Shown in pieces: positions 22-17,837 of a stretch of 17,837 nt of DNA. Numbering within the stretch: position 1 is the first letter of the stretch; each line of letters begins with the position of its first letter. A model generated the notes under the pieces. That model searched no databases, was not told where the DNA came from, and saw nothing but the letters and a program-made list of their open reading frames with translations. Position numbers and translations under genes: made by a program. The stretch is from UHGV virus genome UHGV-0106859. One strand, given 5' to 3'. The DNA comes from a virus.

Positions 22-78
22 TTAATTTGCTCCAGATACAAGGAATCGCCGCAGCGTAGCTACGGTGAATTTTGGGCA

Positions 79-102
79 TAAAAAAACCCAGCCGAAGCTG
101 GG
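79..102 (-). terminator. Rho-independent terminator downstream of ant
   Basis: Hairpin CCCAGC-cgaa-GCTGGG (87-102) followed on the minus strand by a run of 7 T then AT (plus-strand A-run 79-86); lies about 20 nt after the ant stop codon (122-124). Confidence 0.6.
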
Positions 103-121
103 TCGTTGCGTTGGTTATCTG

Positions 122-1045
122 TCAGTAGTTATGTACTGAAGGAGGCAATTCTTTATTCTTAAGTCTCATCCATGCGGAAAGATTCGTTGGTCCGTCTGGC
201 TCATTAATATCAACATCTCGTGTGTGGTTTATTAAAACGTCTCTCGCCATTCCGATAACATACGAGAATTCATGACCATAGTCGTAGCATCTGCCTGAAT
301 AGTTCGATTGAATTTGTTTTAGCGCCGGATACAGTTCGCGGAATAATGCCTGTGAGCGGTTGGCATAATCCCATAACCATACAAGGCTGTTTGCTTCTTT
401 TGCAGAAAGCTCGTTGGTTTTCTTCTCTTGTTTGCCGATGAACTCACCTTCAAGTGGAACTCGAGCTGCAAGTGATAGTGCTTCGGTAAACTGCTCCTCA
501 CTGATTTCTTTGTACGAACATCCAAAATGGGATTTCAGTGACGACCACATGGTGATCATCGCCTTAGCCTGTTTTTCCTTTGGCAGAGACTGACCGCGAC
601 TCATGACGAGTTGTTTAATGGCTTCCTGCTGTTCAGTGGTGATTTTACCCGGCAACGCCTTTTTAGCTTTGCGTGGGTTAACTACATGACCTTTAGTCCA
701 GTACTCGTATAGCACATCGTCACACTCTTCTTGATACTGGATTACATTGTCGCGGATTTCAGGGCGGACTTTGTTAGGGCTGATGGTTTGCAACCAGCCA
801 TTCAGTTTACGTAAAGCAAGGCAAATCATGTTCTGCACACCGCCAACTGAAGGTATTGCGATTTCCACAATACCTTTAGCAAATCTTTGTTTTAACTTTG
901 TAAACTGTGAAGCCCAATCCATACCCATTCCCTCAACGATAGGTTTCATTGGGGTGTACGGCTCACCGTTGTGATTAACAACATAAAGCTCTGCGCCGTG
1001 GAATGGTACATTGATAGTAGATACTGCTGTTGCTATACTTTTCAT
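122..1045 (-). CDS. ant: Antirepressor (Ant-like; N-terminal AntA/AntB-type domain)
   Basis: 307-aa ORF; N-terminal region (VPFHGAELYVVNHNGEPYTPMKPIVEGMGMDW...) resembles the phage antirepressor N-terminal domain; sits in the immI-like cluster downstream of an Arc-like gene and opposite mnt; ATG start with GGA about 8-11 nt upstream. Confidence 0.75.
   Translation of the reverse strand: MKSIATAVSTINVPFHGAELYVVNHNGEPYTPMKPIVEGMGMDWASQFTKLKQRFAKGIVEIAIPSVGGVQNMICLALRKLNGWLQTISPNKVRPEIRDNVIQYQEECDDVLYEYWTKGHVVNPRKAKKALPGKITTEQQEAIKQLVMSRGQSLPKEKQAKAMITMWSSLKSHFGCSYKEISEEQFTEALSLAARVPLEGEFIGKQEKKTNELSAKEANSLVWLWDYANRSQALFRELYPALKQIQSNYSGRCYDYGHEFSYVIGMARDVLINHTRDVDINEPDGPTNLSAWMRLKNKELPPSVHNY
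1011..1039 (+). promoter_or_regulatory. Near-consensus sigma70 promoter inside the 5' end of ant, reading antisense (Psar-like)
   Basis: TTGATA (1011-1016), 17-bp spacer, TATACT (1034-1039) on the plus strand; predicted start near 1046, immediately past the ant start codon and antisense to the ant ribosome-binding region. Confidence 0.45.
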
Positions 1046-1120
1046 GTCGTTAATTCCTATGCGTGGTTTTACGATACCGAAGCCCTGACTGTTACCGCAG
1101 TTGGGGCTTCAACTTTCTGC
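1046..1120 (+). ncRNA. Candidate sar-like small antisense RNA (about 70 nt) covering the ant translation-initiation region
   Basis: Starts downstream of the promoter at 1011-1039; contains a 13-bp stem with 6-nt loop at 1079-1110 that is stronger in the plus-strand RNA (two G-U pairs that become A-C mismatches on the other strand), followed by CUUUCU. Size and placement resemble the sar RNA of phage P22 immI. Confidence 0.35.
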
Positions 1121-1312
1121 TCTATCAGTTATATCTTTCCCTTCATATACTTCACCTATATTGCTAATGCTGGCAGAACATCCAAGATGCTTGTATCTTA
1201 TGATGTCCAACACGCAGTCACTACACAGCATCCGACCTGTTTCTTTAGAGTAAATGTATGTTTGATCAGCGTCTGATTCGCTAATGCCGCAGAAACAACA
1301 TTCTTTACTCAT
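1109..1312 (-). CDS. Small cysteine-rich protein (67 aa; CCxC near the N-terminus and CxxC at 30-33; possible zinc ribbon), hypothetical
   Basis: ORF start ATG overlaps the stop of the upstream Arc-like gene (ATGA overlap at 1309-1312), suggesting translational coupling; purine-rich SD (AGAGAGGGG) upstream; occupies the slot directly upstream of ant. Confidence 0.5.
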   Translation of the reverse strand: MSKECCFCGISESDADQTYIYSKETGRMLCSDCVLDIIRYKHLGCSASISNIGEVYEGKDITDRAES

Positions 1313-1449
1313 ACCGTTATCCCCTCTCTCTTCAGGCTGTCCATCACCCGTTTAATTACTTCTGCACTAAATGAGCGACACTCTTCCTTTGCTTTCTCTT
1401 CAAGGATTTTTTCTAACTTCTCTGGCATACGCAGTGTTTTTACCTTCAT
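1309..1449 (-). CDS. Arc-like ribbon-helix-helix repressor (46 aa), below the 60-aa cutoff of the supplied ORF track
   Basis: Hand-translated: MKVKTLRMPEKLEKILEEKAKEECRSFSAEVIKRVMDSLKREGITV; the C-terminal helix (RSFSAEVIKRVMDSLKREG) resembles P22 Arc (RSVNSEIYQRVMESFKKEG as recalled); GGAGG SD 6 nt upstream of the ATG at 1449; first gene of the minus-strand immI operon. Confidence 0.65.
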   Translation of the reverse strand: MKVKTLRMPEKLEKILEEKAKEECRSFSAEVIKRVMDSLKREGITV

Positions 1450-1548
1450 TGCATCCTCCGTTGTATGTGGTACGCATACATAGTATTTAGGTACGCATTG
1501 ATAGTCAATAGATACCTACATATCCTGTGGTAAAAAATTATTCAGGAT
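1450..1548. promoter_or_regulatory. Divergent promoter/operator region between the Arc-like operon (minus) and the Mnt-like/mnt operon (plus)
   Basis: Minus strand: TTGACT (1508-1503), 17 bp, TACTAT (1485-1480). Plus strand: TTGATA (1498-1503), 17 bp, TATCCT (1521-1526). The two -35 boxes overlap within the palindrome ATTGA-TAG-TCAAT (1497-1509). Direct repeats GGTACGCAT at 1469-1477 and 1490-1498 (21-bp period) and an imperfect palindrome GTATG-n7-CATAC (1463-1479). Confidence 0.45.
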
Positions 1549-1554
1549 GTGCCG

Positions 1555-1812
1555 ATGTCTGATCGTAAGTACAAAAACCCTCAAGTGAATCTGAGGCTTC
1601 CTGTAGAGATAAAGGAACGTCTTATTGAACTGGCTGAGGCTAATTCTCGTTCATTAAATGCTGAGATGGTCGCGGCACTTGAAGCATGGACCGAAAAAAA
1701 TAAACACATTCAAGCACTAGACCTTGCAACTATAGCATCACGATTGATAGATCTTGAACATGATGTTGAGAAGTTGAAATGCATGTATAGCAACAATAAA
1801 GACGAAAGTTAG
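1555..1812 (+). CDS. Mnt-like ribbon-helix-helix DNA-binding protein (second RHH repressor, about 85 aa) with C-terminal coiled-coil extension
   Basis: N-terminus (QVNLRLPVEIKERLIELAEANSRSLNAEMVAAL) has the RHH beta-strand/helix pattern; track ORF begins at GTG 1549, but ATG at 1555 has an AGGA SD 7 nt upstream; immediately upstream of and co-directional with mnt. Confidence 0.65.
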   Translation: MSDRKYKNPQVNLRLPVEIKERLIELAEANSRSLNAEMVAALEAWTEKNKHIQALDLATIASRLIDLEHDVEKLKCMYSNNKDES

Positions 1813-1835
1813 AGATACTAACTTGGAGTGATGGC

Positions 1836-2087
1836 ATGGCTAGAGACGATCCGCACTTTAACTTCCGTATGCCTATGGAAGTAAGGGAGAAATTAAAATT
1901 CAGGGCGGAGGCGAATGGGAGATCAATGAACTCCGAGTTGTTACAAATCGTCCAAGATGCTCTATCAAAACCATCGCCTGTGACTGGATATCGCGACGAT
2001 GCAGAACGACTCGCTGATGAGCAGTCAGAGCTTGTTAAGAAGATGGTGTTTGATACGCTGAAGGATTTGTACAAAAAACCCACCTGA
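1836..2087 (+). CDS. mnt: Mnt repressor (ribbon-helix-helix; P22 Mnt-type)
   Basis: 83-aa product MARDDPHFNFRMPMEVREKLKFRAEANGRSMNSELLQIVQDALSKP... is near-identical to P22 Mnt as I recall it; GGAG SD 7 nt upstream; orientation opposite to arc/ant as in P22 immI. Confidence 0.85.
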   Translation: MARDDPHFNFRMPMEVREKLKFRAEANGRSMNSELLQIVQDALSKPSPVTGYRDDAERLADEQSELVKKMVFDTLKDLYKKPT

Positions 2088-2098
2088 CGGTGGGTTAC
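2071..2098. terminator. Bidirectional hairpin terminator between convergent mnt and the accessory 355-aa gene
   Basis: CCCACC-tgac-GGTGGG (2079-2094) with an A-run upstream (T-run on the minus strand); the mnt stop codon lies in the loop; the minus-strand gene stop is at 2101. Confidence 0.5.
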
Positions 2099-2100
2099 TG

Positions 2101-3108
2101 TTACTTGTCTGAATCATCCAGTTCGTCTGTTTTCACATCCTCAAACCTTGGATGCAGGCGATTCATTTTTGCAATAAAATCTGAATAGTCGTTAGATAGC
2201 TTCATAATCGTAACGGTTGATGACAGATGCTCTCTTAATTTTTGATATCCAATATTTGGCGTCAGCCCCTGAAACAACTTTGTACCTTTTGAAGCCTTTA
2301 CGTTCTGCTTTTTAAGCTCCTCAAGGATGTTTGGTGCCAATCGCTTGTAGACGATATCATTTGTCAAAACGCCAAAATACTGAGGGCGGAAGCGGGGATT
2401 TTCCGGCGGGTATTCTAAGCCCCTTAACCTGAAAAGCTCTTCATAATAATCAGCCGGAAATGTTGTAATATAAGGTTGAATTTCCTTTGCGACAAAGGCC
2501 TCGAGTATTTTGGCGAGCGCATCTTTTTCTCTATCTCGCTGGTACCCCGTCGCTTCATCAACAAGCGCTATTATTCCGACTTTAGCTAATGAGCGCACCA
2601 GAATTTCAGCTTTCTTGGCTGTCTCTAACTGGTTTGGCCTGGTGATAGCGCCTGCCTCTCTTGCCTTTAAATAAACATCGCAAACAAGAGGTATTATGGA
2701 TGCGTCATAACCTTCTTGGACGGAGCCAGTAATCGTCTTGTATTTAACCTTATTGATCACATCCATAACATCTTGATTTATATATTTTTTAAGGTTTGCA
2801 GCATCCATAAAAGCGGGCATATTGATCGCCCCCTCTTCTTGAGGTGCTCTACCCCCTCTTTGTGGTCGGCCAAATGCTTTAAAAACAGAAGCTTGTGATA
2901 TGATACGCCGTCCATTTTCGAGAACCGCGACATCTAATTCCGCATCACCGATCTTTAACTTTCCCTCATTCGCAGATACGGGCAATAAAGCTTTTTCTTT
3001 TTTTGCGGCAACAGCCTTTCTTGAGGATTCTTTTCTTTGCTCTGCTGTCATTTTTGCCGCGCGTGCCTTACCGCCTTTGGCCTTCCCACTAACATCATCA
3101 TTTTTCAT
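2101..3108 (-). CDS. Accessory (moron) protein of unknown function, about 335 aa, with a lysine/arginine-rich N-terminal tail; possibly a P63C-type phage domain (unverified)
   Basis: Long minus-strand ORF (track 2101-3168, but that start is a TTG inside an operator-like palindrome; first plausible ATGs at 3114/3108 with weak SD). AT-richer than the flanking structural genes. Lies between gene 16 and mnt, the slot where P22 carries sieA. Confidence 0.65.
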   Translation of the reverse strand: MKNDDVSGKAKGGKARAAKMTAEQRKESSRKAVAAKKEKALLPVSANEGKLKIGDAELDVAVLENGRRIISQASVFKAFGRPQRGGRAPQEEGAINMPAFMDAANLKKYINQDVMDVINKVKYKTITGSVQEGYDASIIPLVCDVYLKAREAGAITRPNQLETAKKAEILVRSLAKVGIIALVDEATGYQRDREKDALAKILEAFVAKEIQPYITTFPADYYEELFRLRGLEYPPENPRFRPQYFGVLTNDIVYKRLAPNILEELKKQNVKASKGTKLFQGLTPNIGYQKLREHLSSTVTIMKLSNDYSDFIAKMNRLHPRFEDVKTDELDDSDK

Positions 3109-3148
3109 GAGCATATCTCGTGTTGTGATTGATAAGTCAATCATACAC

Positions 3149-3186
3149 ATGCACGTTGTAACGTGCAATATTTAAATATGCACGTA
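3149..3186. promoter_or_regulatory. Operator-like palindrome cluster upstream of the accessory gene
   Basis: Perfect 18-bp palindrome TGCACGTT-GT-AACGTGCA (3150-3167), perfect 12-bp palindrome ATATTTAAATAT (3168-3179), and a third TGCACGT half-site (3179-3185); possible minus-strand -35 TTGCAA at 3194-3189. Confidence 0.5.
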
Positions 3187-3267
3187 AATTGCAAATCAGA
3201 TAATGAGGAGACTTTCTCCCCCTTGCACTGACATCATGGTATTCTGCTCAAAACTAAGGAGGTTGGT

Positions 3268-3597
3268 GTGTTAGAAATAGTCGTACTCGCTCTTGGGATA
3301 TCCTGTTGCGTACTATATGCAGGGTTAGCTGCCCTCAAGAAACAGGTTAAGGAATTAGATCGCTCACATGAAATTGATACAAAAATTGCGCGATTAACAG
3401 AAGAGAATAAACACTTAAAAAATTCCATAAGGGCACTAACTGATGACAACTACAAACTGTCCCATGCATTGGCTAAGTGGGAAATAGTAAGTTATGAAAG
3501 AATGACCGACATGATTTTTTCGTCTTATATGGCTACAAAATCTCCTGAAACATCAGGAAAAGCAATAATTGCAGCCATTGAAAAGAGAATTAAATAG
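3268..3597 (+). CDS. Small membrane-anchored coiled-coil protein (109 aa), hypothetical; candidate superinfection-exclusion or accessory factor
   Basis: GTG start with a strong SD TAAGGAGG 5 nt upstream (3255-3262); N-terminal hydrophobic segment LEIVVLALGISCCVLYAGLAAL, then a charged helical region; AT-rich; convergent with gene 16 and divergent from the 355-aa gene. Confidence 0.7.
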   Translation: MLEIVVLALGISCCVLYAGLAALKKQVKELDRSHEIDTKIARLTEENKHLKNSIRALTDDNYKLSHALAKWEIVSYERMTDMIFSSYMATKSPETSGKAIIAAIEKRIK

Positions 3598-3616
3598 CCT
3601 TCCTTGGCGTTCATTT

Positions 3617-5458
3617 CTACTGCCTGGTAGCTTCGTTAGTTAGGAGAGGGCGAACGGCGTTAGCAGCCTGATTTAACGCTCGCTCATATGCCGGAGTTCC
3701 AGGCTTGACGTTTGCAAGGCGGAGAAGCATGTTTCTTGCTGCTTTAGACTCATACAAACGCATCATTGCACCAAAGCCAGCCTCAAGCCCCATTGATACG
3801 CCAAGAGTCGCAGTTGCGCCAATCGTCCTTATCCGGTTGGCTTGCGATTGCCCCGTCTGAGTTACTACATTTGCGGTGTCTGACCTTGCTGTTTGCTGTA
3901 GAACTTCATGAAGAGAATCAAGCTCTTTCATGTGCTTTCCAGAAAAAATAGTGTTGTAAATTTCACCGCCTGACTGAGATTTCAGCTTATTAACTTCAGT
4001 GATGAACTTGGCTGGAGAGTCACCGGCCTTTTCCGCTATTTTGCTGACATAAGCTGCACGCATAGCATCTTTCCCTTTATTATCCAATGCGCTCCAGATT
4101 CGTTTCACGTCAGATGGTTTTCTGCTTAATACAACGGTATTTATAAGTTCAGGACTGGCTTCACTGCTTGCCTTGTTGAGCTTGTTAGCAATGTTTTTAT
4201 TAAGCACCTTATTATAAACGTTTGCATAATCGGAATTTGCTTTAAGGTATTTTGCTGCGTCTGATGCACCGAGGTTTTTTGCAACTGCGTTACGAAGATC
4301 TTTTGACATTGCATTCTCTACCATATTGGTAGCTGCTTTTGCCTGGTTTGGGAAGACCATAGCATCTCCCTGAACATTAGATCTAAATGCTGTTCTGTGC
4401 TGACGCAAGAGATCAAACGTAACATCCAAATCAGTTGCAGGGTTTGCTAATTCTTCACGTAGGTTACGCAAGGATGTAAGCAGGCTTTGATTGGCAGACG
4501 TCCCAAGCCGTTCCTGTCTTGCGATCGCTGTATTCAGAGCATTCATGGTATTTGTGGTATCAACTGCGGCATTACCCATTTTATTGGTGACGTCATTGAT
4601 AACAGCGCTAGCGGCATCCTTCCGCCCCCTTAACGTGGTGGTAAGAGATTTCACCACATCATCAGGGTTGTACTCACCAAAACGGTCAAAATAATTACTT
4701 ACCAGCTTACTACGCGTTGCATATTGCTCCGCTCGCTTTGAGCCTGTCCCGAGCAAAGCCCCCTCGGCATCCTGAGTTAGGCCGCGAGTGAAAGCATTTT
4801 TCGGCGGGATAACATCAGATGTCATTGGTGTCACGCCCATCGATTCTGATGTGGCAATTTTCTTCGCCACTTCTGGCGCAATATCACCTTTTATAGCCGT
4901 TATTCCACGCCCTATTCCCTTTGCTGCTGCGGAAAGAACCCCCTGAGCGGCAAGGTTAACTCCGGCATTTTTAGCTGCATTTTGTGCGAAATCGCCTTTC
5001 TGATTTGCGGCCTCTGCCAGTGATCCAATAGCCATGCTTCCTGCCGTTCCAACTCCTGGAACTAAATACCCGCCAATTGTTTCTCCAGCTTGCGCATAAG
5101 GGTCTGTTGGTCGATCGACTGGACGATAGACATCGTCCAAAACCTTGGGGCCACCAAGCCCCTGGCTGATTGCATTAATCAGACTTGCGCCGCCCTGCAA
5201 TACGTCAAATGGTATGTTTACCAGACCACGACCAGCCTGTTCCGCAATTTGCCCTGCACTTTGACCACCAGTGGGCCAATCGCCAGCTTGTTGCATCAAT
5301 GATGGTTCTTCCCGTGTTGGTGCATTATTGGCCTGATTAACTGTTTGTTGCTGAACAGCCTGACCAGCAAAATACTCATCAATGGCGGTGCCAATATCTT
5401 CGGTGCTCGTACCATCAGGAAAGGTAAATGTCTTACCGTTTGCAGTTACTTTCATCAT
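3617..5458 (-). CDS. Ejection (DNA transfer) protein gp16-like
   Basis: 613 aa (P22 gp16 is about 609 aa as recalled); last gene of the ejection-protein trio; ATGA overlap with the upstream gene at 5455-5458. Confidence 0.85.
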
Positions 5459-6861
5459 TCCACCGTAAATTGAATGCCTGATCTTGAGGTATATGATCCA
5501 ACCTGATTCCGTGGTTCTCCTGAAGGTGTCGAATCTTGTGCTGGCGCTGCGTCAGTATTCATTGACATATACCGCTTAACGGCACTCCCCAATGATTCAC
5601 CTTTTTTAACATCCAACCCCAATATCTGACCGCCATTACGCGATTGTCCAGGGTTGCCATTCGCGCTCATCCACTCAGCTTTAAACTCATTAAACTGCGC
5701 GTTTCGTCGCTCAAGGTTTGCCATTGCATCAAGCCATCTTGCGACCGTCTCAGGGTTATCCATGTCAGTTGGCGCACCCTGTCGAACGATCTCAACGTCT
5801 TTATCCGTTGCTGGGCCGGGAGGTAGGAATTTAAGAACCTGACTGTTAACAAGGGCATTTTGGCGAATGCGCAAATCACGCAATGTCGTATCGCTTCCGG
5901 TAAGTTTTGCGAACATGTTCTGTGCGTTACCGAACAAGCCGGTCGTTGGTTTTTCTGCTCTGAACTGTTGAGCAAGCGCACTCATGGAATTGGCTGAGTT
6001 TGATGATGCTGTGGCATTGTTTACAGCCGTCTCGATGCCTTTTTCCATGTTTACTGACAGCTTAGGTGCTTCGCTAATCAACTGCTGAGCCTTTTCCTGC
6101 GCTTGCTGCATCTTAAACCCGAACTCTTGCTGATCCAGAGCCAAGCGTTGTGCTGCGATATTGTGCCCAGTCATTGCTGACTGATAGGAAAGGTTTTGCC
6201 CTCTCGCCTGAAGTGCTTCACCAGCCTGATTGCTGCGGATTGTCTCTGCCAGCCCGCCTCGGTCAATCTCACGACCAGCCATCTTGTCCTGAACATTGAA
6301 GTAATCAATCGGACCAAGAGCAGCCATTCCAAGGTGATCAACAAACTCACCAAATCCTGAAGGATTCTGCTGATACATCTGAGCAACGCTGTTAGGGTCA
6401 ACACCGACGCGAGTCAGTTCCTTGGCGTTGTTTTGCAGCCATGATTGCATTGCTTCTGGAGACGATGACGCAAGGCGTGCGCCAGCCGCTAATGTACCGA
6501 TAGAATTACGCTGGTCTTCATCAATGAATCCCATGCCTTTACGAACGGATTCAATCTGGTCTGGATATTGAGTAGCTAACTGACGCAAAGCACCGCGATC
6601 ACCAGACGCATAAGCATTAGCGTATGCCTGCTGAAATTCTTTCTGCCGCTGAGCCTGCTTTTCCTGCTGAAACACCCCTGCAATACCTGAAAGGCCTTGC
6701 AAAGCAGTCAGCCCAACATTGTTAGCGCCTGAACGCTCAATATCATTGTTCTGCCTGATAAGCTGAAGCGTATTGCCGATGTCATTTACGCTCGGAGCGT
6801 TTGAGTTGACGCCGCCGATACCAGCCAACAATCCGCCGTTTGTTCCTTGCCAAGTAGCCAT
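5455..6861 (-). CDS. Ejection (DNA transfer) protein gp20-like
   Basis: 468 aa, Gln/Ala/Asn-rich low-complexity composition typical of P22-family ejection proteins; AAGGGG SD 5 nt upstream; gene order gp7-gp20-gp16. Confidence 0.85.
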
Positions 6862-6870
6862 GATTACCCC

Positions 6871-7563
6871 TTAAAACAACGAGCCAAGCAATCCGATACC
6901 AGCACCAATGCCAGCGCCCCAAGGCGTTGATGTTCCCAAAAGGCTGGCAAGACCTGCACCGGCAATCGCACCAGACGTGCCACCGCTAATTGCAGTCTGA
7001 AGACTTGATGGTTTATTGGCATTAGCAGCGGCAAGTGCTGCGCTTTGCTGTGCAATGCTGCTCATGTTGTTGGCGTATGTCTGCCCAGCGTTTGCCTGAC
7101 CTTGCAGCGCACCAAGCCCAACGTTTGCCAGATTGTTGTAATTGCTCATCTGATTTGATAACCAAGACTGACCGAGTGTCGGCGCGATCGTAGCCAGTTG
7201 ATTGCTTGTGGCTGTCGAACCAAGTCCACCCGTCGCCTCCGCAGCAGCAAGACTCTGGTAACGAGCCTGCCCTGCAAGGTCTTTATACTGCTGAGAGTTG
7301 TAATACTGATTAAGTGCCTGCCCCTGACCTTCTAAACTGGAAAGGCTCTGAAGCTGGTTAACATACTGCTCCGCAAGAGGCGTGAACTGAGCAAGGTTTT
7401 TCATGATCGTCTGCCACTGCTGATTTTGCAGGTCTGCAGCATACTTCTGGGCTTCTGCTGCATACTTTGCGCTTTTATCAGAACTGCCACCTTTCCCGCC
7501 TTTTTCAGGGCAATAAGGTTCCTCGCCGCGCAGTTTTCTGCCCAGCTTAAATGCATATAACAT
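6871..7563 (-). CDS. Ejection protein gp7-like
   Basis: 230 aa (P22 gp7 about 229 aa as recalled); Gly/Ala-rich hydrophobic C-terminus (GAGIGAGIGLLGSLF); position between gp14 and gp20. Confidence 0.8.
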   Translation of the reverse strand: MLYAFKLGRKLRGEEPYCPEKGGKGGSSDKSAKYAAEAQKYAADLQNQQWQTIMKNLAQFTPLAEQYVNQLQSLSSLEGQGQALNQYYNSQQYKDLAGQARYQSLAAAEATGGLGSTATSNQLATIAPTLGQSWLSNQMSNYNNLANVGLGALQGQANAGQTYANNMSSIAQQSAALAAANANKPSSLQTAISGGTSGAIAGAGLASLLGTSTPWGAGIGAGIGLLGSLF

Positions 7564-7565
7564 GG

Positions 7566-8024
7566 CTATCTCCCGTGATTCAGGAAGTCGATTAGTTCTT
7601 CGCGTGTGGCGCTGTAAAACGTCACGTCATCCACGCCTTTAAAGTATTTCTTGATGGTTCCTACACGATTAAGGCCAATCATTGCGCAGTACATCTGCCC
7701 GTGGCGGAATTTGCGTGCAGCGAACGATGTGACACACTGAACAGTGGTGTTAGTCAGAATGTATCGCCAGAACGCCAGCCCGATTTCCTTGCTGAATCCA
7801 CGAACCTCTGGCAGGTACATGGCGTGGCAATCAAAGGTCAAAGGCTGAATCTCCTGATAGTAAACAATGCCGCCGAACTGCCCGTGCACGTTCACCTCGA
7901 AGTAACGGCATTCAGGCTTGTAGTCGTATCCATCACCGTTGTTGCTCCCGGCAATAATGTCAGGGTGATTTCCGACTGCTTCGATCAGGTCGATGTTTCG
8001 CGTTTGGTTGAACTGAATCATCAC
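7566..8024 (-). CDS. gp14-like head/ejection accessory protein
   Basis: 152-aa ORF directly downstream of the tail needle gene with ATGA overlap (8021-8024); position matches gene 14 in P22-like gene order. Confidence 0.7.
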
Positions 8025-8974
8025 TGCTCCGCGATTATCTTGATGGTTGTGGCAGTAAACGCCGCCACATTTGACTGGATGGTTAACGTACTGCCATTTG
8101 TGGCAAGAAAGCCGTCTTTATCCACGCTGAAGAACGTAGCTAACAGGATGTTATCGGTTGTTGTCGCCGAGTTGCGACTGCTTACCAGTGTGTCAGGAAC
8201 AGATCCGGAAAAGGTTAGCTGCATTGACCTGTTTGCGGTTCCGCTGGGCCACGTCCCGACAATCGACAGCTTGAAGAACAGGGTTTTGTTCTCGTTGAAA
8301 ACAACCATCTTGTTGTTATCAGTATCGAAGAATGGTGCCAACGTCCCGGATGACGGCGTGAGCGTTTTCAGCAGGCTAACAAGGTTGGTCGGCGCTGTTG
8401 GAATGGTTACCGATACTCCTGAGTAAACAACCTCTGATTTCTTGCGCGTGGTGGCATACTCAAGCGCAGATATTCTTGTTGAGTGATCACCAACTGTGCT
8501 TTGTAGCGTCGAAATACTTCCCTCTGCCGCTGTGAGCCTGGTATCAAGTGCGTTGATATCGGTTGTATTCTGAGTTATTCGCGCATCATGGTTTGCTAAC
8601 TCAGATTCATTGGCAGCAATTCGCGTCTCGTGATCAGCCAGCTCTGTTTCGGCAGCCGTAATCCTTGTTTCATGATCTGCAAGAGTGCTTTCCGCTGCTG
8701 CGATTCTATGTTCATGATTGACGAGAGTTGCTTCAGCAGCAGCAATTCTGGATTCATGGTCTGCAAGGGTGACATCCTGCTCATCATTCTTCACCTGTGC
8801 ATCATAAGCTCCCTTCCCTGCTTCGTTGGCCTTGTTAGCCACGTTACCAACATCAGTACCCTGTGCGATAACGTACAGCAGATATGACTGCGAGAAGATA
8901 TTGCGTGGAAGGACTGATGTGTCGAGTCGTGTAGCCTGAATGATTACCGGCTCATTGAGATTCGAATCAGCCAT
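8021..8974 (-). CDS. Tail needle (gp26-like), 317 aa, with extended coiled coil and a C-terminal globular domain absent from P22 gp26
   Basis: N-terminus [43 protein letters not shown] closely matches P22 gp26 as recalled; start ATG overlaps the gp10 stop (TAATG at 8972-8976), so the longer track ORF to 9076 is an in-frame upstream extension. Confidence 0.85.
8567..8770 (-). repeat. About five imperfect 42-bp tandem repeats inside the tail needle gene, encoding 14-aa repeats ([14 protein letters not shown])
   Basis: Protein repeats [14 protein letters not shown] / [14 protein letters not shown] / [14 protein letters not shown] / [14 protein letters not shown] / [12 protein letters not shown] are visible in the translation; the DNA shows matching periodicity. 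Confidence 0.6.
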
Positions 8975-10392
8975 TACTCGATCCTTATCTGGCAGCCAGA
9001 CAGAGTGACAGGTGACTTCGTGATAACGCGCAATTTGAAGCCGACATTTTTCCTGATGCGCCCGACTCGCTTCCACAAAACACGCTTGTCGTAAACGAAC
9101 GGTTCATTCTGCTCAATCATCTGCTCACGACCGTAATTGATGCCATCAGTGGTTGCCGAGAGGAACAGGCGGTCGGCGTACTGAGCGACCCCCGTCGATG
9201 ATTCCACCTCCAGATCAAAGCATCTGGCGTTATCTGCTTTGAAGAGTGGAGTAAACAGCAGGTGTTCTTGCTGTAGCCCATACTGGCTGCTGATGTCGAA
9301 CTGCAATTTTCCGGTCACGGACTCCAGCTTATCGCCGCACGTTATCTGATTGCCTTCGTAAATGAAGTCGATAGCGCGGTACACATCGTCATACAGGCCT
9401 GTTTTCAGCACACACCATTGCGGACCATTGGCGCTTGAAGATGCGTCGTACACAAGGACGTGACGCGAAAGATGGATAATCAGCAACTCATGAGCATCAA
9501 ACCGCAACGATTCCATCACACCATCAGCCAGTTCATCAGCAGTGTAGGAGCGGAGGATTTTCTCAATGCTCGCGCTGGCGATTGGTGATACCTGACCGGA
9601 GCCGATGATGTATACAGACGGAGCACCTGTTGCCGGATTGCTGATAAACGCATAGGAATCAGCAAACGGCGTTTTGCAGTAAGTTCCGGCAATGCCTTTC
9701 TGCACCATCAGTGATGGCTGTGCGACATACAAAGCGGCACCAACGGTGGTTGCCCCAGTCAGGGAAAAATATTCAATCGTCGATGAACCAAAGCAGACGA
9801 TGAAGTCTCGCCATGTTCCGATGCCGAGGATACCGTCCGGCTGCGATTCTGCGCGATATTGTGCGCTGTAACGGTCAGGATGCGATTCGTCTTCAGGGTC
9901 AGTGATAAACCATGAATCCGTGCCGTCTTTTGACCACGCATAACGCCCACGTAAACGCGTAATGTCGCGAACCGAACCTAACTCATACTGAGTGAATCCG
10001 CTGTCTGTAGGCCAGTTTGAGACTGTTTTAACCGTTCCATCATAGCGATACTCGACCAGTTGACCATTAACGCCTACCGCCTGAGATGTTCGACCATGCG
10101 CCATTGATACGCGACCACTTCCGGCAACATCACCGACCTCGCTTTCGCCCTTATACAACTTGCCACCGCAAACGCGATAAACAGCATTCTGCGCCATGTT
10201 GTACTCGACACCGCGCGATACACCATTCACATCAGAGCGTTTGGCAATGCCAGGGAATGAGCGAAGATATCCACTGCTGTTGAGGATTTCTTTGGGGGTT
10301 GCCAGCATATTCACTGGCAGATAGTCGATATAGTCGGCGTTTCGAAAGTCTTTGCCGACACCTTTCATAAGCGGAAGTTGCTGAATCGGCAT
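8974..10392 (-). CDS. gp10-like tail hub/head-completion protein
   Basis: 472 aa (same length as P22 gp10 as recalled); between gp4 and tail needle; stop-start overlaps on both sides. Confidence 0.85.
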
Positions 10393-10892
10393 TATTCGCT
10401 CCCGTTATCGCAAGGTTCCTTTCGCTGGAAGTAATTCCAGCCGTTCCACTTCGCCAACTGGTTACCACTACCAACAGGCATACGGTTTGGATAACCGGAC
10501 TTACATTTAGCGGCTTTTGCTCTGTCCATTGCAGACAGTTTGACGAGTCTCTCTTTCCCGTATCTGGCAGTGGTTATAAGTTTTGCAGACGCTTCCAGCG
10601 CATAATCCGGAGCAATGCGGCAGGCAAGGTTGAAAATGACGGCATTGATAGCGTTATTTGATAAACCGTGCTCATCGCCCGGATCTGGAGCGACATCTGC
10701 ATCAGCGAAAATGTAGCCAACGTTGATACCAGGTGACACATCACCGCCAAGCCATTCAGCCATCATCATTTCAAGGTCGTTGACGCCGTCTTCCATAGAC
10801 TGCGGTTCGACATCGGTTAACGTGGCATTTGATGCCACACCGAGCTTACGTAATGCCGCAAGAACTAAATCACCCTTCGTTGTCAGGTTCAT
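10392..10892 (-). CDS. gp4-like tail accessory protein (portal-proximal tail factor), 166 aa
   Basis: Start assigned to the internal Met ([33 protein letters not shown]...), which matches the P22 gp4 N-terminus and length as recalled, with AGGCGG SD upstream; the track start at 10982 adds a spurious SQSQSQ leader. Confidence 0.8.
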
Positions 10893-11118
10893 CTGCTGCC
10901 GCCTTAGGTTTTCGACCAGGCTTTTTACGCTGTTTTTCTTCTGGCTCTGGCTCTGGCTCTGGCTCTGGCTCTGCAACATCATTCAGAAGATTATCAGGAT
11001 GTGCAAACCAGCCAGCATCCAGATATTCCTGAAGCTCTTCGGCTTTCACGATTTCAAAGTCGTATCCAACGCCTTTCCATTTCTTCATGTCGCCATGACG
11101 AAAGATCATGTGTGTCAT
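10870..11118 (-). CDS. Small hypothetical protein (82 aa) with (EP)5 repeat and lysine-rich C-terminus, between coat and gp4
   Basis: ATG at 11118 with GGAGA SD 6 nt upstream, directly after the post-coat terminator; its 3' end overlaps the gp4 start by 23 nt in another frame; track ORF 10870-11166 is an upstream extension. Confidence 0.5.
10941..10973. repeat. Hexanucleotide microsatellite (GGCTCT) about 5.5 copies; encodes (EP)n on the minus strand
   Basis: Direct read: ctggctctggctctggctctggctctggctctg. Confidence 0.9.
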
Positions 11119-11130
11119 GCTTGTCTCCAG

Positions 11131-11154
11131 ATAAAAAAGGGAGCCGAAGCTCCC
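11131..11154 (-). terminator. Rho-independent terminator/attenuator immediately downstream of the coat gene
   Basis: GGGAGC-cgaa-GCTCCC hairpin (11139-11154) followed on the minus strand by TTTTTTAT; 9 nt after the coat stop; the next gene SD/ATG follows directly. Confidence 0.6.
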
Positions 11155-11162
11155 TCTGGTTA

Positions 11163-12458
11163 TCACGCAGTCTGGTTAGGCAGACCAACACCAATTGCCT
11201 CTGGTCGTACAGCACATGCTGAATACCACACAGCAATACGGCACTTACCAGACAGAGTGTTGATATCACCCTGCGTTGCGAAGATGCCGTTAACACCAAT
11301 ACCTGGAATGCTGAAGGAAGAAGTTTTCATGCCAGCAAACAGTTCATGGGTTACCGGAATCGGCTGAGACAGCAGGCGGATTGAGTCATCAGCCCAGAAC
11401 ACGTTAGCGGTGGTTGTTGCCACGTTCAGAACGTTTACCGGAGTGGTATTAGCAAGAGAGGTGTTTACGTTAGCGTAAGCCTTCTCTTCTTTTGTCAGTG
11501 ACGCGTCATCCAGCGCAATCGGCTTCGGCGTGATTTCGATGTGAGTATTATCGATCACTCGGGTGATTGAGAAAGTCGCATCATCAGTCAGCACGTTCTT
11601 CGCCATCTGAGACAGGAATTTCACACCAGTGAAGCTGATTTTGTCGCCGCGCTTAAATCCGGTGGTGGAGGATACGGTCACCGTTGCAACACGGTTGTCG
11701 ACGTTCTCCTTGTTACCATCGGTATCAAGGGTGTATGCCTGCGGCTTAAACTTCTGCGCTCCAGACACAGTTACACCAGTAGCGGTTGACTTGGTAACTG
11801 CCGGAAGTTTCGGTGAGCGAAGAATTTCATCAAAGCCAGCAATCTGACGCTGAATAGTACCGTTGCGATACGCTTCTTCAGGAACGCGACCGAAGATGTC
11901 ACCATCTACCAGGTTGCGGCCTGCTTTGCGGTAATCGTCAGGATTCAGGAAGTAACTGATGCCCATATCGCGGTTTAGCTCACGGGAGAACATCAGTCGC
12001 TCTGCATCAGACACAAAATCCCATCCAGACAGGCCAGTAGATGGACCAATTGCGCGGGTATCGTGAACAACAAGCGAGCCCATTTCAGTTGCCTGTTTGG
12101 CAATTGCTGACTCAATGTTATTCGCCAGTTTTTTGGCGGATGCCTGGATGCGGCGACGGTAAGAACGCTCATCACGCAGGTCATCTGCACGAAGCTCGAA
12201 GAAATCGTTATCCGGATCGCCCATGTTGCATTTCACGGAGAGTTCCAGAATCCCGGTTGCGTTGTCAGTTAAATCCCAGCCAGTCTGGGTTGGCGCTTCC
12301 TGCTCAACAGGCATCCACACGGTGTTGCTTGAACGCTGCATTGATTCTGCCGGAGGGGTGTATTTTGTCACTTTGGACGCCATTGGCGTCAGGTTCTGGA
12401 CGGTTTCGATGATTTCATCCAGAGCATATGTGACCAGTTGACCTTCATTTAATGCCAT
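11163..12458 (-). CDS. Major capsid (coat) protein, gp5-like (HK97-fold, P22 type)
   Basis: 431 aa; start MALNEGQ and many blocks ([42 protein letters not shown]) match P22 coat as recalled, with substantial divergence elsewhere; TAATG overlap with scaffold stop. Confidence 0.95.
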
Positions 12459-13369
12459 TATCGAATTCCTTTATTCAGTTGCGCCTTAAGCTTGCGGTAC
12501 GTCTCTACATCCCCTTTGTTTGCTGCCGCTTCCATCTGCTTTTCAATCGCAGAGATATTTGCAGCAACAGCGTGTCCCTGAATGGGTTCATCAGGTAACG
12601 GGGCTTCTGAAACAGGCTTTGCTCGAGGCTTGAGAGTTAAACGTTCTGACAGTCGAGTGAGTTCAATCAGCGCGGATTGCCCGTCCATCGCCAGCAACTG
12701 GCGTGTTTTCTCAGGATTAGCACCAAGGTGATACATGAGAGCAGCGGATTTCTCCGGGAAGAGGCGCATGATGTCGGCACCGACTGCTGGCGGCACCAGT
12801 TGCATGAATGCATCCTCTTTCTCCTGATAGTCAGGGATATTGAGCTTTTCCGCTGCGTCGTAGTGCTTACGGGCTGCCTCGACGTATTGCGCTGATTGCT
12901 GGGTGAACTCCTGAGTTTTGCGACCCTGCTCGGCGACAGCCTGGCTTCGTGCGTCCATAGCCTTGATCTGCCATTCACTGTTTGCCTGCTGGAAGGCAGC
13001 CAGTGCGCGGCTCTGGTCATAGTCGTACTTAGCCAGTGCATCTTCGGAAAGATAATCGTTAGGGTCTGGTTGTTTTGGTAACTCAGGGTTCACCCGCAGG
13101 TGCTCCGGCAACTCTCCACGCTTAACCGCTTCCATCTGCTGCTCAAGCTCACGCTGGCGTTTGCGTTCGATGCGGCGACGGGCAAATTCAGCATTAGTTG
13201 CCGGGTCTTGTTTTGGTTTCTCATCGTCTTTCAGGACAATCTCAAAGCCTTCTTCCTGACCTGCACTGTCGTTGGCATTATCGACAACTAAGCCATCAGC
13301 AGATGCCGCTGCATGATTGCCGGGCAGGGTTAATTCTTCAGAAGCCTGAATGTCGGTGGTTTGGTCCAT
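12458..13369 (-). CDS. Scaffolding protein, gp8-like
   Basis: 303 aa (P22 gp8 is 303 aa as recalled); highly charged helical composition; between portal and coat. Confidence 0.9.
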
Positions 13370-13382
13370 GGTTAACTCTCTC

Positions 13383-15548
13383 TTATTGAGGTGTCTCGGC
13401 TACTCCGCCGGAGGGGATTTGAACTTGACGCATAAGATTCGCGAAATCCATGCGTTGTGAATGAGTCTGGTCTGCATCTTTAAGAAGCAGCTCAGCGTTA
13501 GCACGAGCATCTTTGCTGCGCTGTTGCTGGAATTGAACTACGAGCTTGAGGTACTCACGCAGTTCTGCCTGCTTGTCGAGGTCCATATTGTTGAAGATTT
13601 CTGCAATCTTCGCGGCGTTGAGTTGGTTTTGGGCTTCAACCTTGGCGGCTTCAACCTGAATCTGCGCCTGTTGGTTCTCTGCCTTGAGCAATTCAGCCTG
13701 ACCTTGCAGAAGGATACCCTGCGCCTGAATTTGCTCTGCTGATGGCTGCTGCGGCTGCTGTTGAGCCTGCTGTACCATCTCCATCTCTTCAGGTGTTTCT
13801 GGTTTCTTCAGCCCCATCATCACCAGTTGCTTGTTCGCGTACTCTCGCATCATCTCGACGCCTTTACCGTCAAGCAGCGTGAAGTATTGCAGCATCAGCA
13901 TCTGGAACTCTGGAGTACCTTGCGGAACCTTGGTGAGCAACTCCTGAATCTCTGCGCGGTTCTGTTCCTTCATGCTCTGGAAGGATGGTCCAACTCCTAT
14001 ATAGCACTCGTAGCGACCGCGAATGTCGTTGAGTGTGACCACATTACCGGACTGGTAATCGACAACTTGCGCGTAGAGTTGAACGTCTTTCTCGCTTCCA
14101 TCTTCAAGTGTCAGCGTTACATGACGAGGGATGTCATAAATATCATTGACCATTGAGGCATAAATCTCGCCATCACGCCGCATTGCGGTAGCCAGGTTAT
14201 CCTGAAACACGTATGTCTCAAGGTCTGACCGCATGTTCAGTTGATTGACGGTATCGAAAGAGACCTGAGAGTTTGCTGCCTGTGCATCCACGCCAAGACT
14301 AGCCACCTCTTTCACTGCGTTGGTGGCAGCCTCAAGCATGTAAGCGTTGGCTTGCGGCACTTCAGGGTTTTCCATGTAGGAGATTGGACCAATCGGCAGG
14401 TCGTTACCGTTTTCATCAGTCCTGTTCTGGAGATAGTACGGATAGTCATCATTTCCACCGTACATGTATTCGTAGCCTTCGATTTGCTCAGGGAAGAAGG
14501 TCGGTTTCTTCTTCGGTGAACGACCAACAATATCGGCGTTGAATGACATGATCATGTTACGAAGGCGTTGACCGTCTTTCGTCAGCCTTACCACTCCTTC
14601 GTAGCACTCCTTGTCACCAGCGAATGACCATTCGCCATACACTGGAACGATTGGAATATGCTCTCCTGCTATCTTCTCGCGGTCTTTCAGTATCTGTGTG
14701 CAGGTGATGATCGACTTATACACACGCCGACGCTTCACCTTGCGCTCTGCTACCTTAATGAATCCACGATTAGCCAGGTCGTCGATGACGTCTTTAATAT
14801 CCTGCTGGTAATAGCTGACCGGCTCACCTGTCAGCGGGTCGCGGTAGATGAAGACCTTCTCTTTCTTCTCTTCTATCTCGTAATACTCAGCGACGTAGAC
14901 GACATCATTCGATACCCACGGAAACAGCCATGTGTCGTTCGGATTCTGGAAAGATGGCAAGGTGTCCGGATCAATACCGTAATCCTCTGCGAACTCTTTC
15001 CAGCCATTGCGTGACAAGGCGTTAATCACCGTGCAGTGCTTAGCGTCGCTCTTATCCATCTGCTTGCTGTTGGCGTCCCATATGACGTGTGAGCAGGCCT
15101 CATGGATTGGCAGGCGTCTGATTACCTGATTGTTGCTTGTTGGATCGTTGTCTTCGTACTGTGTGACCAGACGCCATGCACCAACGCCGGACTCTATCTG
15201 CTCACGAACGCCAACGTTAACGGCAATCTTTGCCGTGTTATGGCGCATATCAGTACGATACATCCCCATCAACACATCGGCTGCATCAGGATTAGCGCCG
15301 TCTTTGGGTCGGAAGAGAACGTCGATAGGGTTCCGGCGCATCTCTGCGACCAGTTTCCTGACCACTGGGCGAACAACATCGAATTGTCCGCGATATTGCA
15401 GGGTGGTGTAGTTTGATAGCCAGTCATCCCATTGCGACACTCGGCTAAAAAACAGGTCATTTGTCGCCTCGGTTCTGGCTTCATCGCTCGCCATCCAGTC
15501 TGCGTCAAACTTACACAGAATGGAATTGAGTCTGTTTTCGTCGGCCAT
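13383..15548 (-). CDS. Portal protein, gp1-like
   Basis: 721 aa; long Gln-rich C-terminal barrel region and conserved blocks ([33 protein letters not shown]) match P22 portal as recalled; directly follows large terminase. Confidence 0.95.
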
Positions 15549-17048
15549 TTAAGTTCTCCGTGCGATGGGCCTGATTGGGGCTGGTATCTTTTTCTCTTTT
15601 GGTTTTTTGATGTCGCGCATCATTTTGGCGAAGCGGCGCATCATGTATGCATAGCGAACGGCTGAGAGAACGTCGTCGTTAAGCTTGACGATCTTCCCGT
15701 TTTCATCACGGTGATAGAGGCGGAACTCCTCAAAGAATGGCTCACAGGTGTTGAATACTTTGAAGCGACCATCGAGCATCATGTCGCGCAATTCAGTGAT
15801 GCCAGGCTCCACAGCATTACCGCCATCAGGCCATGTCGCATGCTCCTGCAACATCATAAAACCAGCGTCCGCGTACTGCCCTTTGAGCTGCTCACCGCCG
15901 CCCTTCTCATGCTGGTTTCCGTCATGAGGCCATGCGGTTGGCACTTTATGCGCCCATGATTTAACAGCTCCCCATGCCTGAACAGCTGTTTTTTCTTTCG
16001 CCTTCCACACGCGTGAAACGTAGATTGTGTCTGCGTCCTTATCCCACCAAAGCTGAACCTGCGCCTGTGGGTGATCCCATCCGAAATCCATCCCACCAAT
16101 TACGTAGAAGTGATCAGGACACTCGAACGGCTGACACTTAATAGTCTCTTCCGGTATCTGGAAGATTCGACCACTACCCATCGTAGGAATACCGCGAGCA
16201 CGCGCCTCTCTCTCATGCTCGGGATAGGATGCGATGATTTGCTCTTTCTGCTCGTCGGTGTAGTGCTCTGCGTCATAGATGGTCATGTTGACCACTTTCT
16301 GCGACTTGCTGGGATTCTTCAGGAACTTGGTAACAACGTCAGACATCCCCATCAGCGGGGTAAACGTCAGAATTGAGAATTGCCCGTATTTGTTGGTACG
16401 GGTAAGACCTTCGCCATAAATGCTGTATGGTGGCTCTTCGTCAAACCACACGCCGTGGATTGTGTCACCCTGCCAGCGAGCGCGGCCTTGCGAGTATGGT
16501 TTGAAGTAGCAGATTGAAATGCCATCTTCAACGCCATCAGCCGTGTGATGCTTAACCAGAAGATGATCAACAAGGTTCGGAAAGAAAGGAGACTTCTTCC
16601 AGCTAATGATGTCCTCTTTCGGTATAGAACCGTAGCCCGGTTCATCATTCTCTTCAATACGACCGCACAGGATGCGTTGAGTCGTTTTGGTTACCGTCTC
16701 GTTTGTCTCGCCACCAATCCAGAAGACAACAGGCTCATAGAAACGCTTACCTTTCCACTCCCCACCATATTTACCATCAGCAGGATAGCCTTTTGTGCCC
16801 GGATAACGCCCTGTAAGGTGAAACGCGACTTCAGCAGCACCAGTAAATGACTTACCAAGCTGGTTACCAGCCATAAAACAGCGCTCTGGATAGTCATGCC
16901 CGGCGTCGATGAACTCACGCTGTTTGCTGTATGGCGTAAATTCATATAGCAGGTGTGTGTTCCGGTAGTTCTCTTCTTCTTCGAGTAGCTCGAGCAATTC
17001 GATTTGCTCTTCGTCGCTCAGGTTATCAAGAATCGCGTCCAGTTCCAC
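15549..17048 (-). CDS. Terminase large subunit, gp2-like
   Basis: 499 aa; Walker A-like GNQLGKS near the N-terminus; C-terminal nuclease region; GTG start (plus-strand cac at 17046-17048) with AAGGAG upstream; overlaps the small terminase 3' end by 23 nt. Confidence 0.95.
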
Positions 17049-17514
17049 GGTTGAATAGCTCCTTGATACGAGAGCGTCGCTTATCGCGATCTCCCTTATC
17101 AGGTGTCACGTCTTCAACTTGCGACTGCTCTTTGAGGCCCAAATCACGGGCGATGATGTTAGCGTTGAGAAGGTCAGCGGCTGCGCCAGAGAATTTCTGG
17201 TCGTAGATGATGTCTTCCGCTCGTGATGTGACGTCAGAAAAACCTTCCATTGACCGGAAGGTTCCCCATGTTTGCCTGGTGATATCAAGGAAGGTACACA
17301 ATCCTGAAATAGTCATGGCTCGCATCTTAGGGACATTAGCCTTAATTATTTCTCCCTGATATGAAAATACCTTACCCTCCCATAGCGGGTTATCATCAGC
17401 CCACTCGAAGTATTCACAACAAGCTGCCCACAGCGCCTCAGGCGATTCGAATTTAGGATTTCGCCCATGACTACTGCGGGCCTCCCAAAATCGGTTGCCC
17501 TTTGGTGCTGCCAT
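17026..17514 (-). CDS. Terminase small subunit, gp3-like
   Basis: Product [38 protein letters not shown]... matches P22 gp3 as recalled (162 aa from the ATG at 17514; the track ORF begins two codons earlier). Confidence 0.9.
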
Positions 17515-17549
17515 ATTCATCTCACTTAATCGTTATTTCAGGTTGAGCA

Positions 17550-17792: not shown

Positions 17793-17837
17793 TGTTGGCT
17801 CCGTTTATCCGTTAAAAGGGATATCAGTTAAGTTATC

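Follow-up and report, generated by a model that had tools for sequence, protein, structure and literature searches.

A Tail Needle Gene of the HS1/Sf6 Type in a P22-Like Phage Genome, and Length Variation of Its Repeat-Built Shaft among Relatives

The Needle Gene and Its Genomic Context

The window, i.e., the whole 17,837-nucleotide stretch of the virus genome UHGV-0106859 that was analyzed, carries on its minus strand an open reading frame (ORF) with an ATG start at position 8974, a TGA stop at 8023-8021, and a product of 317 amino acids (aa). With its two immediate neighbors, the locus consists of the following genes:

8974..10392, minus strand: gp10-type tail hub of 472 aa, the upstream gene (Pfam PF11134 Phage_stabilise, E = 3.9e-298)
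8021..8974, minus strand: tail needle gene, orthologue of P22 gene 26 and Sf6 gene 9, complete (317 codons plus TGA; ORF and translation)
7566..8021, minus strand: gp14-like DUF2824 protein of 151 aa counted from the ATG at 8021, the downstream gene (Pfam PF11039, E = 1.5e-52)

Read directly from the DNA, the TAA of the hub gene and the ATG of the needle gene have one base in common (TAATG), as do the TGA of the needle gene and the ATG of the gp14-like gene (TGATG), the latter being a 456-bp coding sequence in the RefSeq annotation of an identical region. Pfam matches of the neighboring ORFs on the same strand place gp4 (PF11650) and the gp10 tail hub upstream of the needle, and the gp14-like protein, gp7 (PF25688), and gp20 (PF16928) downstream of it, followed by a 613-aa ORF that occupies the gp16 position without a Pfam match and, beyond that, by genes for a P63C-domain protein, Mnt/Arc, and Ant. 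In its remaining part the window carries ORFs of coat, scaffold, portal, and terminase size, and the late operon runs uninterrupted from the small terminase gene to the Ant gene. This layout agrees with the annotation of a 98%-identical prophage that adjoins dacD in Escherichia coli Ecol_881, and a needle encoded between gp10 and gp14 homologues is an order common to Sf6, JEP4, Ecol_881, and HS1. The gp10-type hub is the channel plugged by the needle, as described in the cryo-EM study of the Sf6 tail (PMC9728967).

Two plus-strand ORFs (7701..8426 and 8630..8887) lie antisense to the needle gene; both were dismissed, because homology in the minus-strand frame is overwhelming and divergence there is mostly synonymous. 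Elsewhere in the window, a (GAGCCA)n repeat that codes for (EP)n in a small gene upstream of gp4 differs in copy number between strains, and the Mnt/Arc-Ant region, which we take to be the P22 immI region, is mosaic relative to the otherwise 98%-identical Ecol_881 prophage.

Domain Architecture of the Needle Protein

The needle protein was divided into four segments, which are listed below in the order of their codons together with the evidence used to delimit them:

8768..8974, minus strand (codons 1-69): N-terminal domain of the gp26 type, which binds the virion (plug), and the first part of the helical core (phmmer against the PDB, BLASTP against P22 gp26, PHROG 1219)
8558..8767, minus strand (codons 70-139): five 14-aa (42-bp) repeat units in register, with the consensus L-A-[DN]-H-[ED]-x-R-I-x-A-A-E-x-x
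8459..8557, minus strand (codons 140-172): distal shaft with degenerate heptads (heptad layout, AlphaFold2 helix)
8024..8458, minus strand (codons 173-317): Sf6-type tail needle knob with a TNF-like jelly roll (Pfam PF16532 Phage_tail_NK, PDB matches, AlphaFold2)

Residues 1-69 align with P22 gp26, and the full BLASTP alignment (E = 4e-54) runs from residue 1 to residue 159, with 54% identical positions and a single gap of 21 aa. In phmmer searches against the PDB, residues 1-79 differ hardly at all from the HK620 needle (5bu5), residues 3-64 match a fragment of P22 gp26 (8eap, E = 1.5e-27), and residues 1-139 match the P22 gp26 structures 2poh and 3c9i. Residues 1-112 match PHROG 1219 (phrog_1219), annotated as "tail needle protein."

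The shaft is long and alpha-helical, with heptad periodicity that gives signals at offsets 7, 14, 21, and 28. The AlphaFold2 model, which is a monomer model with a mean pLDDT of 82.6, contains one continuous helix over residues 42-175 and then a beta domain; block-mean pLDDT is at least 93 over residues 61-160. The N-terminal 40 residues were modeled with low confidence (pLDDT 40-50), which is expected because this segment packs against the trimer and the hub. The five clear repeat units are followed by two degenerate ones, and directly before the knob stands another H-x-x-R-I motif, the sixth (VGDHSTRI, residues 161-168); the crystallized HS1 and Sf6 knob constructs include residues 165-172.

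For the C-terminal domain (about residues 173-317, 145 aa, of which Ser and Thr make up 28%), the assignment as a knob is drawn from several kinds of match. Residues 136-317 match the Pfam family PF16532, "Sf6-type phage tail needle knob," with 351.6 bits against a cut-off of 27 (E = 8.6e-106), and the PHROGs match is phrog_1030, "tail needle knob." Over residues 165-317, the knobs of HS1 (4k6b) and Sf6 (3rwn) are matched with E ~1e-88 and just 3-5 differences in 153 residues. The beta domain of the AlphaFold2 model superposes on both structures with a TM score of about 0.92-0.93 and an rmsd of 1.7 Å, the next structural matches being PRD1 P5, C1q heads, and TNF-family ligands. All of the L-glutamate contacts (E181, K235, S283, D285, L290, and K312), the phosphate-site triad S266-R267-N268, and also S169 and A305 are kept relative to HS1, i.e., 11 of the 11 positions checked from the list of contact residues in Leavitt et al. 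(2013; PMC3741392) are identical.

The C-terminal domain gave no indication of a P22-, HK620-, or epsilon34-type needle tip: the BLASTP alignment with P22 gp26 stops at residue 159, the only other gp26 segment aligned is a non-significant coiled-coil match (E = 0.17), and the PDB matches to the P22 and HK620 needles are confined to the N-terminal half. NCBIfam returned no specific model for the protein, just weak coiled-coil noise (SMC, PspA, and similar) far below the cut-offs; likewise, additional Pfam matches (crescentin, ATG16, MscS_porin, and others) were rejected as lying below their cut-offs and reflecting coiled-coil composition.

The initial annotation of this gene, made without database searches, had described a tail needle whose N-terminal ~70 residues resemble gp26, whose shaft is longer and built from repeats, and which ends in an extra, Ser/Thr-rich globular domain of ~150 residues that P22 gp26 lacks. 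The PDB, Pfam, BLASTP, and AlphaFold2 results bear out this architecture in each of its parts, and no alignment of the C-terminus with P22 gp26 emerged when gaps were allowed. A comparison with needles of the Sf6 and HK620 type, which had been proposed along with it, places the knob with Sf6, and HK620 matches only in the N-terminal half.

The 14-Residue Shaft Repeat

At the protein level, the repeat is strong. Self-matches at an offset of 14 residues number 43, compared to 8.7 ± 2.7 in shuffled sequences, and 0 of 20,000 shuffles reached 43. At the DNA level, self-identity at an offset of 42 bp is 0.52, compared to 0.29 ± 0.03 in codon shuffles (maximum 0.40), and the repeat is weaker than in the protein: pairwise, the 42-bp units are just 43-74% identical, and Tandem Repeats Finder reports an array at 8648-8771 with only 3.0 copies and 68% matches. 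"About five 42-bp tandem repeats," as the shaft had been described initially, is thus accurate for the protein and loose for the DNA.

With units of such low identity in DNA, the shaft repeats of the window gene are old. The longest exact direct repeat within its shaft DNA is 10 bp, and this, together with the 43-74% identity of the units, makes recent homologous recombination between the gene's own repeats unlikely. The repeat segment (codons 70-139) is the part that is gained or lost among relatives, as described below.

Relationship to the Needles of HS1, Sf6, and P22

Taken together, the matches identify the gene, with very little room for doubt, as the tail needle gene of an Sf6/HS1-like, P22-like phage (genus Lederbergvirus) that is found as a prophage in E. 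coli. Four complete E. coli genomes contain DNA 100% identical to the gene, set within an entire late operon of the P22 type, and the RefSeq name of the product there is "tail needle knob protein" (WP_032333369.1). Strains with the identical gene include Ecol_881 and IR53017. Isolated phages carry close counterparts: the needles of JEP4, vB_EcoP-720R6, and Gally are 96.7-98% identical to that of the window, with an equal tblastn span in all three and a gene product of 317 aa in JEP4.

The closest described relative is the needle of prophage HS1 in E. coli HS (locus EcHS_A0316), for which Leavitt et al. reported a length of 317 aa and 16 heptads, compared to 11 heptads each in the shafts of Sf6 and P22, within an overall range of 11 to 16 heptads and 220 to 320 Å for the needles of P22-like phages (Leavitt et al., 2013; PMC3741392). 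According to the same study, the N-terminal domain of HS1 is 98% identical to its Sf6 counterpart, the shafts are just 67% identical, and the HS1 knob, solved at 1.1 Å (PDB 4K6B), is 99% identical to the Sf6 knob (PMC3741392). In our comparison, the HS1 gene (L004:40116-41069) aligns with the window gene without gaps over 317 aa. The nucleotide sequences are 95.2% identical, and the proteins agree at 306 of 317 residues; the 16-heptad shaft, the knob, and the slot between gp10 and gp14 homologues are the same. The 11 differences, given with the window residue first, are E8V, K54Q, K62R, A78E, V85I, D100E, A107D, T138A, N141D, D219V, and V303G; two knob substitutions (V219D and G303V) set the window protein apart from HS1 and Sf6. 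The genes downstream of the HS1 needle (gp14 and gp7) are only ~83% identical in DNA to those of the window, and HS1 adjoins tRNA-Thr, whereas the Ecol_881 prophage that nearly equals the window adjoins dacD.

The window needle is therefore a near-identical allele of the HS1 needle, a type that has already been published, crystallized, and annotated in databases (PF16532, PHROG 1030, RefSeq), and the suggestion that its architecture is unusual did not hold.

Sf6 gp9 (282 aa; knob PDB 3RWN) has a near-identical N-terminal domain and knob, with 3 non-synonymous differences in the 145 knob codons, and shares function and gene order with the window needle, whereas its shaft is 35 residues (5 heptads) shorter, owing to gaps of 28 aa and 7 aa. 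P22 gp26 (233 aa; 2POH, 3C9I) is homologous in the N-terminal plug and the proximal coiled coil, and its 14-residue H-x-x-R-I periodicity starts likewise (LADHEARI..., VDDHESRI...). It differs in having 11 heptads and an unrelated C-terminal tip (residues 141-233) in place of a knob, which leaves window residues 160-317 unmatched. A further relative in the PDB is an elongated P22 gp26 fiber with a 300-residue chain (4LIN), in whose alignment part of the P22 core is found two times. It is presumably an engineered laboratory construct, its PDB molecule name reading just "Tail needle protein gp26." Its greater length comes from a repeated helical core, much as natural relatives of the window gene lengthen by 84-bp tandem duplications; unlike them, it is without a knob.

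Knob-type needles are now found well beyond Escherichia and Shigella.

Shaft Length among Relatives

Among the 120 best homologues of the window needle, protein lengths are 254, 268, 282, 289, 296, 303, 310, 317, 324, 331, 338, and 345 aa; a few fragments and lengths outside this grid also occur. The 324 aa result from annotating a 317-aa needle with a start codon farther upstream, and the shaft is no longer. The distance between the motifs NDEQDV and LEYA is always 45 + 7k residues (45, 59, 73, 80, 87, 94, 101, 108, 122, 129, and 136), and in the heptad layout the variants differ by whole blocks. On a scale where 317 aa correspond to 16 heptads, the range now runs from 7 to 20 heptads, compared to the published 11-16.

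The DNA of seven length variants was compared to locate the junctions. Their length changes are clean in-frame deletions of 42, 84, or 147 bp and tandem duplications of 84 bp, located at direct repeats of 6-15 bp:

345 aa, HS1 lineage: units 1-2 (84 bp) exactly duplicated in tandem, the two copies being 100% identical; junction CTTGCAGAyCATGAA, which starts units 1 and 3
289 aa, HS1 lineage: reciprocal 84-bp deletion; junction CTTGCAGAyCATGAA
303 aa, HS1 lineage: 42-bp deletion; junction CGCGAAT, in units 4 and 5
331 aa, HS1 lineage: 84-bp duplication, its copies one base apart, together with the 42-bp deletion; junctions CTTGCAGAyCATGAA and CGCGAAT
268 aa, HS1 lineage: 147-bp deletion; junction TGATCAC
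254, 282, and 338 aa, Sf6 lineage: 0, 1, and 3 copies, respectively, of a different 84-bp unit, the copies in the 338-aa form being 100% identical; junction CATGAAACGCG

A 310-aa protein of the Sf6 lineage, seen at the protein level, has two copies of the unit of that lineage, and the 84-bp unit of the HS1 lineage is present in 0, 1, or 2 copies. The duplications are recent, since their copies are 100% identical (345 and 338 aa) or one base apart (331 aa). Short in-register direct repeats let the shaft gain or lose heptad pairs, and in relatives of the window needle such changes are both recent and recurrent. In other prophages, replication slippage or unequal recombination at 6-15-bp direct repeats has given rise to needles from 254 to 345 aa long. 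The idea that shaft length could vary by recombination, first raised from the repeats in the window alone, is supported by these relatives, whose needle lengths vary from 254 to 345 aa in multiples of 7 residues.

The long form itself is not obviously a recent expansion, because a length of 317 or 316 aa is kept in divergent homologues from Klebsiella aerogenes and Serratia, whose three domains are ~72-80% identical, and on this sequence comparison 317/316 aa may be the older state. To call the shaft "expanded," as was done at first, is right relative to P22 and Sf6.

The ladder of lengths widens the published 11-16 heptads and is an incremental addition that is possibly unpublished. In a literature search, we did not find repeat-mediated variation of needle length described beyond "11-16 heptads"; subscription journals were outside its coverage, and absence from the literature is accordingly unproven.

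A question that follows from the ladder is whether the variation is adaptive. In one reading, shaft length is tuned, the repeat module serving to match the reach of the needle (~10 Å per heptad) to the length of the tailspike or to the depth of the O-antigen or capsule. Several observations are in line with it: the length classes from 254 to 345 aa lie strictly on the 7-residue grid; recent copy-number changes have left the Sf6 lineage with 0, 1, 2, or 3 copies of one 84-bp unit and the HS1 lineage with 0, 1, or 2 of another; and the shortest and longest forms both occur among normal neighboring virion genes, the 254-aa gene lying within a complete-looking prophage that extends from terminase to tailspike and has an integrase, and the 345-aa gene having normal neighbors. 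The grid, however, is expected from structural constraint without selection, because only in-frame, heptad-preserving insertions and deletions give a folded coiled coil. Moreover, just the 282- and 317-aa classes occur among isolated phages closely related to the window needle, and the less common lengths might be neutral or slightly deleterious variants that prophages carry. We therefore regard adaptive tuning as unlikely, and give an equally low rating to the fuller proposition that the shaft is a variable-number tandem-repeat locus, with 42- and 84-bp gains and losses driven by short direct repeats in the units coding for H-x-x-R-I, spanning 7-20 heptads and ~130 Å of reach, in which the variation would be selected; the polymorphism and its junctions themselves are observed.

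Needle and tailspike lengths can be set side by side at four data points only: 254/603 aa, 282/623 aa, 317/663 aa, and HS1, whose tailspike seems to be interrupted by an IS3 element. The 623 aa for the Sf6 tailspike is the residue range given in PMC9728967.

The Knob and Host Range

The position of the knob at the extreme distal tip of the needle, and a TNF/C1q-like fold similar to the knobs with which PRD1 P5 and the adenovirus fiber bind receptors (PMC3741392), invite the reading that it is a receptor-binding, host-range domain, which would recognize a specific outer-membrane component and whose exchange would alter the hosts infected. The initial annotation, too, had considered the domain a likely determinant of host range or envelope penetration, and a Shigella-specific role of the Sf6 knob was left open by Leavitt et al. 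(PMC3741392). The experiments in the same study speak against it, in that P22 hybrids with the HS1 knob, or with the shaft and knob of Sf6, formed plaques and infected Salmonella normally, and the authors judged it unlikely that the tip plays a part in host specificity (Leavitt et al., 2013; PMC3741392).

The pattern of divergence points in the same direction. Among E. coli and Shigella sequences, the knob protein is 96-99% identical, despite differing neighboring genes, whereas identity in the shaft drops to about 50-70%. When the window is compared with eight relatives, synonymous differences affect 14-21 knob codons and non-synonymous ones just 2-4, which is the opposite of what is usual for a receptor-specificity determinant and indicates that the knob is under purifying selection and is not a diversifying specificity determinant. 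With normal infection by the hybrids and a near-invariant knob, we consider a host-range role very improbable, and this part of the earlier proposal was dropped. Envelope penetration was closer to the mark in one sense only: the HS1 knob and other changes of the tip slow the release of K+, a readout of DNA-delivery kinetics (PMC3741392).

Purifying selection on the knob also bears on whether the gene is a decaying remnant of a defective prophage and its repeat expansion degenerative. More than 100 E. coli genomes do have small P22 remnants with an Sf6-type needle gene (Leavitt et al., PMC3741392), and the Rha regulator gene is annotated as frameshifted in the 98%-identical Ecol_881 prophage, at a position outside this window. 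Against this, the needle ORF is intact and full length, with a start and a stop that overlap those of its neighbors, the late operon in the window is uninterrupted, and infectious phages have needles that are 97-98% identical, of 317 aa in JEP4. We regard a remnant as extremely unlikely.

Proposed Mode of Action

A trimeric plug that retains DNA in the virion and is released upon infection is known for P22 and Sf6 (PMC3741392, PMC9728967), and the N-terminal helical hairpin of the needle closes the DNA channel as a quasi-sixfold plug of the hexameric hub (PMC9728967). By homology with P22 gp26, Sf6 gp9, and the HS1 needle, the steps described in this literature are proposed for the window protein as well. 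Three chains would form a parallel coiled-coil fiber, in which the N-terminal ~60 residues are predicted to turn back on themselves in a helical hairpin that plugs the hexameric gp10 hub and its channel and so seals the packaged DNA in the head. The shaft, with 16 heptads by the published count (about 210 Å), would extend from the tail's center and end in a trimeric, TNF-like jelly-roll knob made of the C-terminal ~145 residues, probably with three L-glutamate molecules held at the subunit interfaces. At infection, expulsion of the needle would open the channel for the ejection proteins (the gp7, gp20, and gp16 homologues, encoded just downstream) and for the DNA, and the knob would influence the speed of DNA delivery, not the choice of host.

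Implications

The gene can be annotated with confidence as a tail needle of the HS1/Sf6 type, and speculation about its host range can be set aside. Published work on needle function covered the needle tip only and used engineered constructs (PMC3741392). For the same 84-bp units, both the duplications and the reciprocal deletions are found in public genomes, and these natural needles constitute an allelic series for asking if needle length affects the kinetics of DNA delivery or adaptation to surface polysaccharides.

Probable mosaic exchange at the antirepressor region

Window positions 3647-17837 are 98-98.6% identical to the Ecol_881 prophage, which adjoins dacD in E. coli, and no match to window 56-1988 or 2098-3646 was found in that prophage. 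Three genes lie in or between these two segments:

122..1045, minus strand, Ant antirepressor with P22_AR_N and P22_AR_C domains (within 56-1988, unmatched in Ecol_881)
1836..2087, plus strand, Mnt/Arc-type repressor, between the Ant and P63C-domain genes
2101..3168, minus strand, P63C-domain protein (within 2098-3646, unmatched in Ecol_881)

The pattern suggests a mosaic swap affecting the stretch near Mnt/Arc and Ant.

Short tandem repeats in the window

Short arrays lie at other positions in the window, the first one listed here inside the homologue of the gp7 ejection protein and detected with Tandem Repeats Finder:

7433-7474, minus strand, 21-bp unit in two copies with 86% matches
440-474, short two-copy array
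15953-15987, short two-copy array
10940-10973, minus strand, perfect hexanucleotide repeat, inside ORF 10870..11166

On the plus strand the hexanucleotide repeat reads TCTGGC (5.7 copies); the coding strand reads GAGCCA and gives an (EP)n run in a small gene that precedes the gp4 homologue. Its copy number varies by strain, from 3 in locus L011 to about 5-6 in the window and about 10 in the Ecol_881 prophage (98% identical). In the gp4 frame the same bases would be read as (QS)n, and the annotated gp4 start lies downstream of them.

Constraint along the tail needle

The needle was compared by domain with that of HS1, the prophage of E. coli HS. Shaft codons 70-172 (window 8459-8767) carry 6 non-synonymous and 3 synonymous differences, while the corresponding numbers are 2 and 18 in the knob and 3 and 11 in the N-terminus. 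On these small codon counts, the shaft surface appears far less constrained than both end domains. At two positions the knob has a residue found in neither of the crystallised knobs, those of HS1 and Sf6:

8318-8320, codon of D219, Val in both crystallised knobs
8066-8068, codon of V303, Gly in both crystallised knobs

HS1, the source of a crystallised needle, itself looks defective by the annotation of the E. coli HS assembly (locus L004, 47869-49001), because its tailspike-position gene is annotated as incomplete and adjoins an IS3 transposase, and a Gp157-family gene is interrupted by a second IS3 copy.

Host range of knob-type needles

In the account of Leavitt et al. (2013; PMC3741392), the hosts of all knob-bearing P22-like phages were Escherichia or Shigella, and the knobs of those phages differed by no more than 4.9%. 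In our search, prophages of Klebsiella aerogenes, Serratia marcescens, and S. fonticola encode knob-type needles of 317 or 316 aa with 76-80% knob identity (homologues P0053-P0076, P0085, P0105, and P0115), and phages of Klebsiella, Salmonella, Aeromonas, and Shewanella also have knob-type needles (phage matches H8 and H11-H14).
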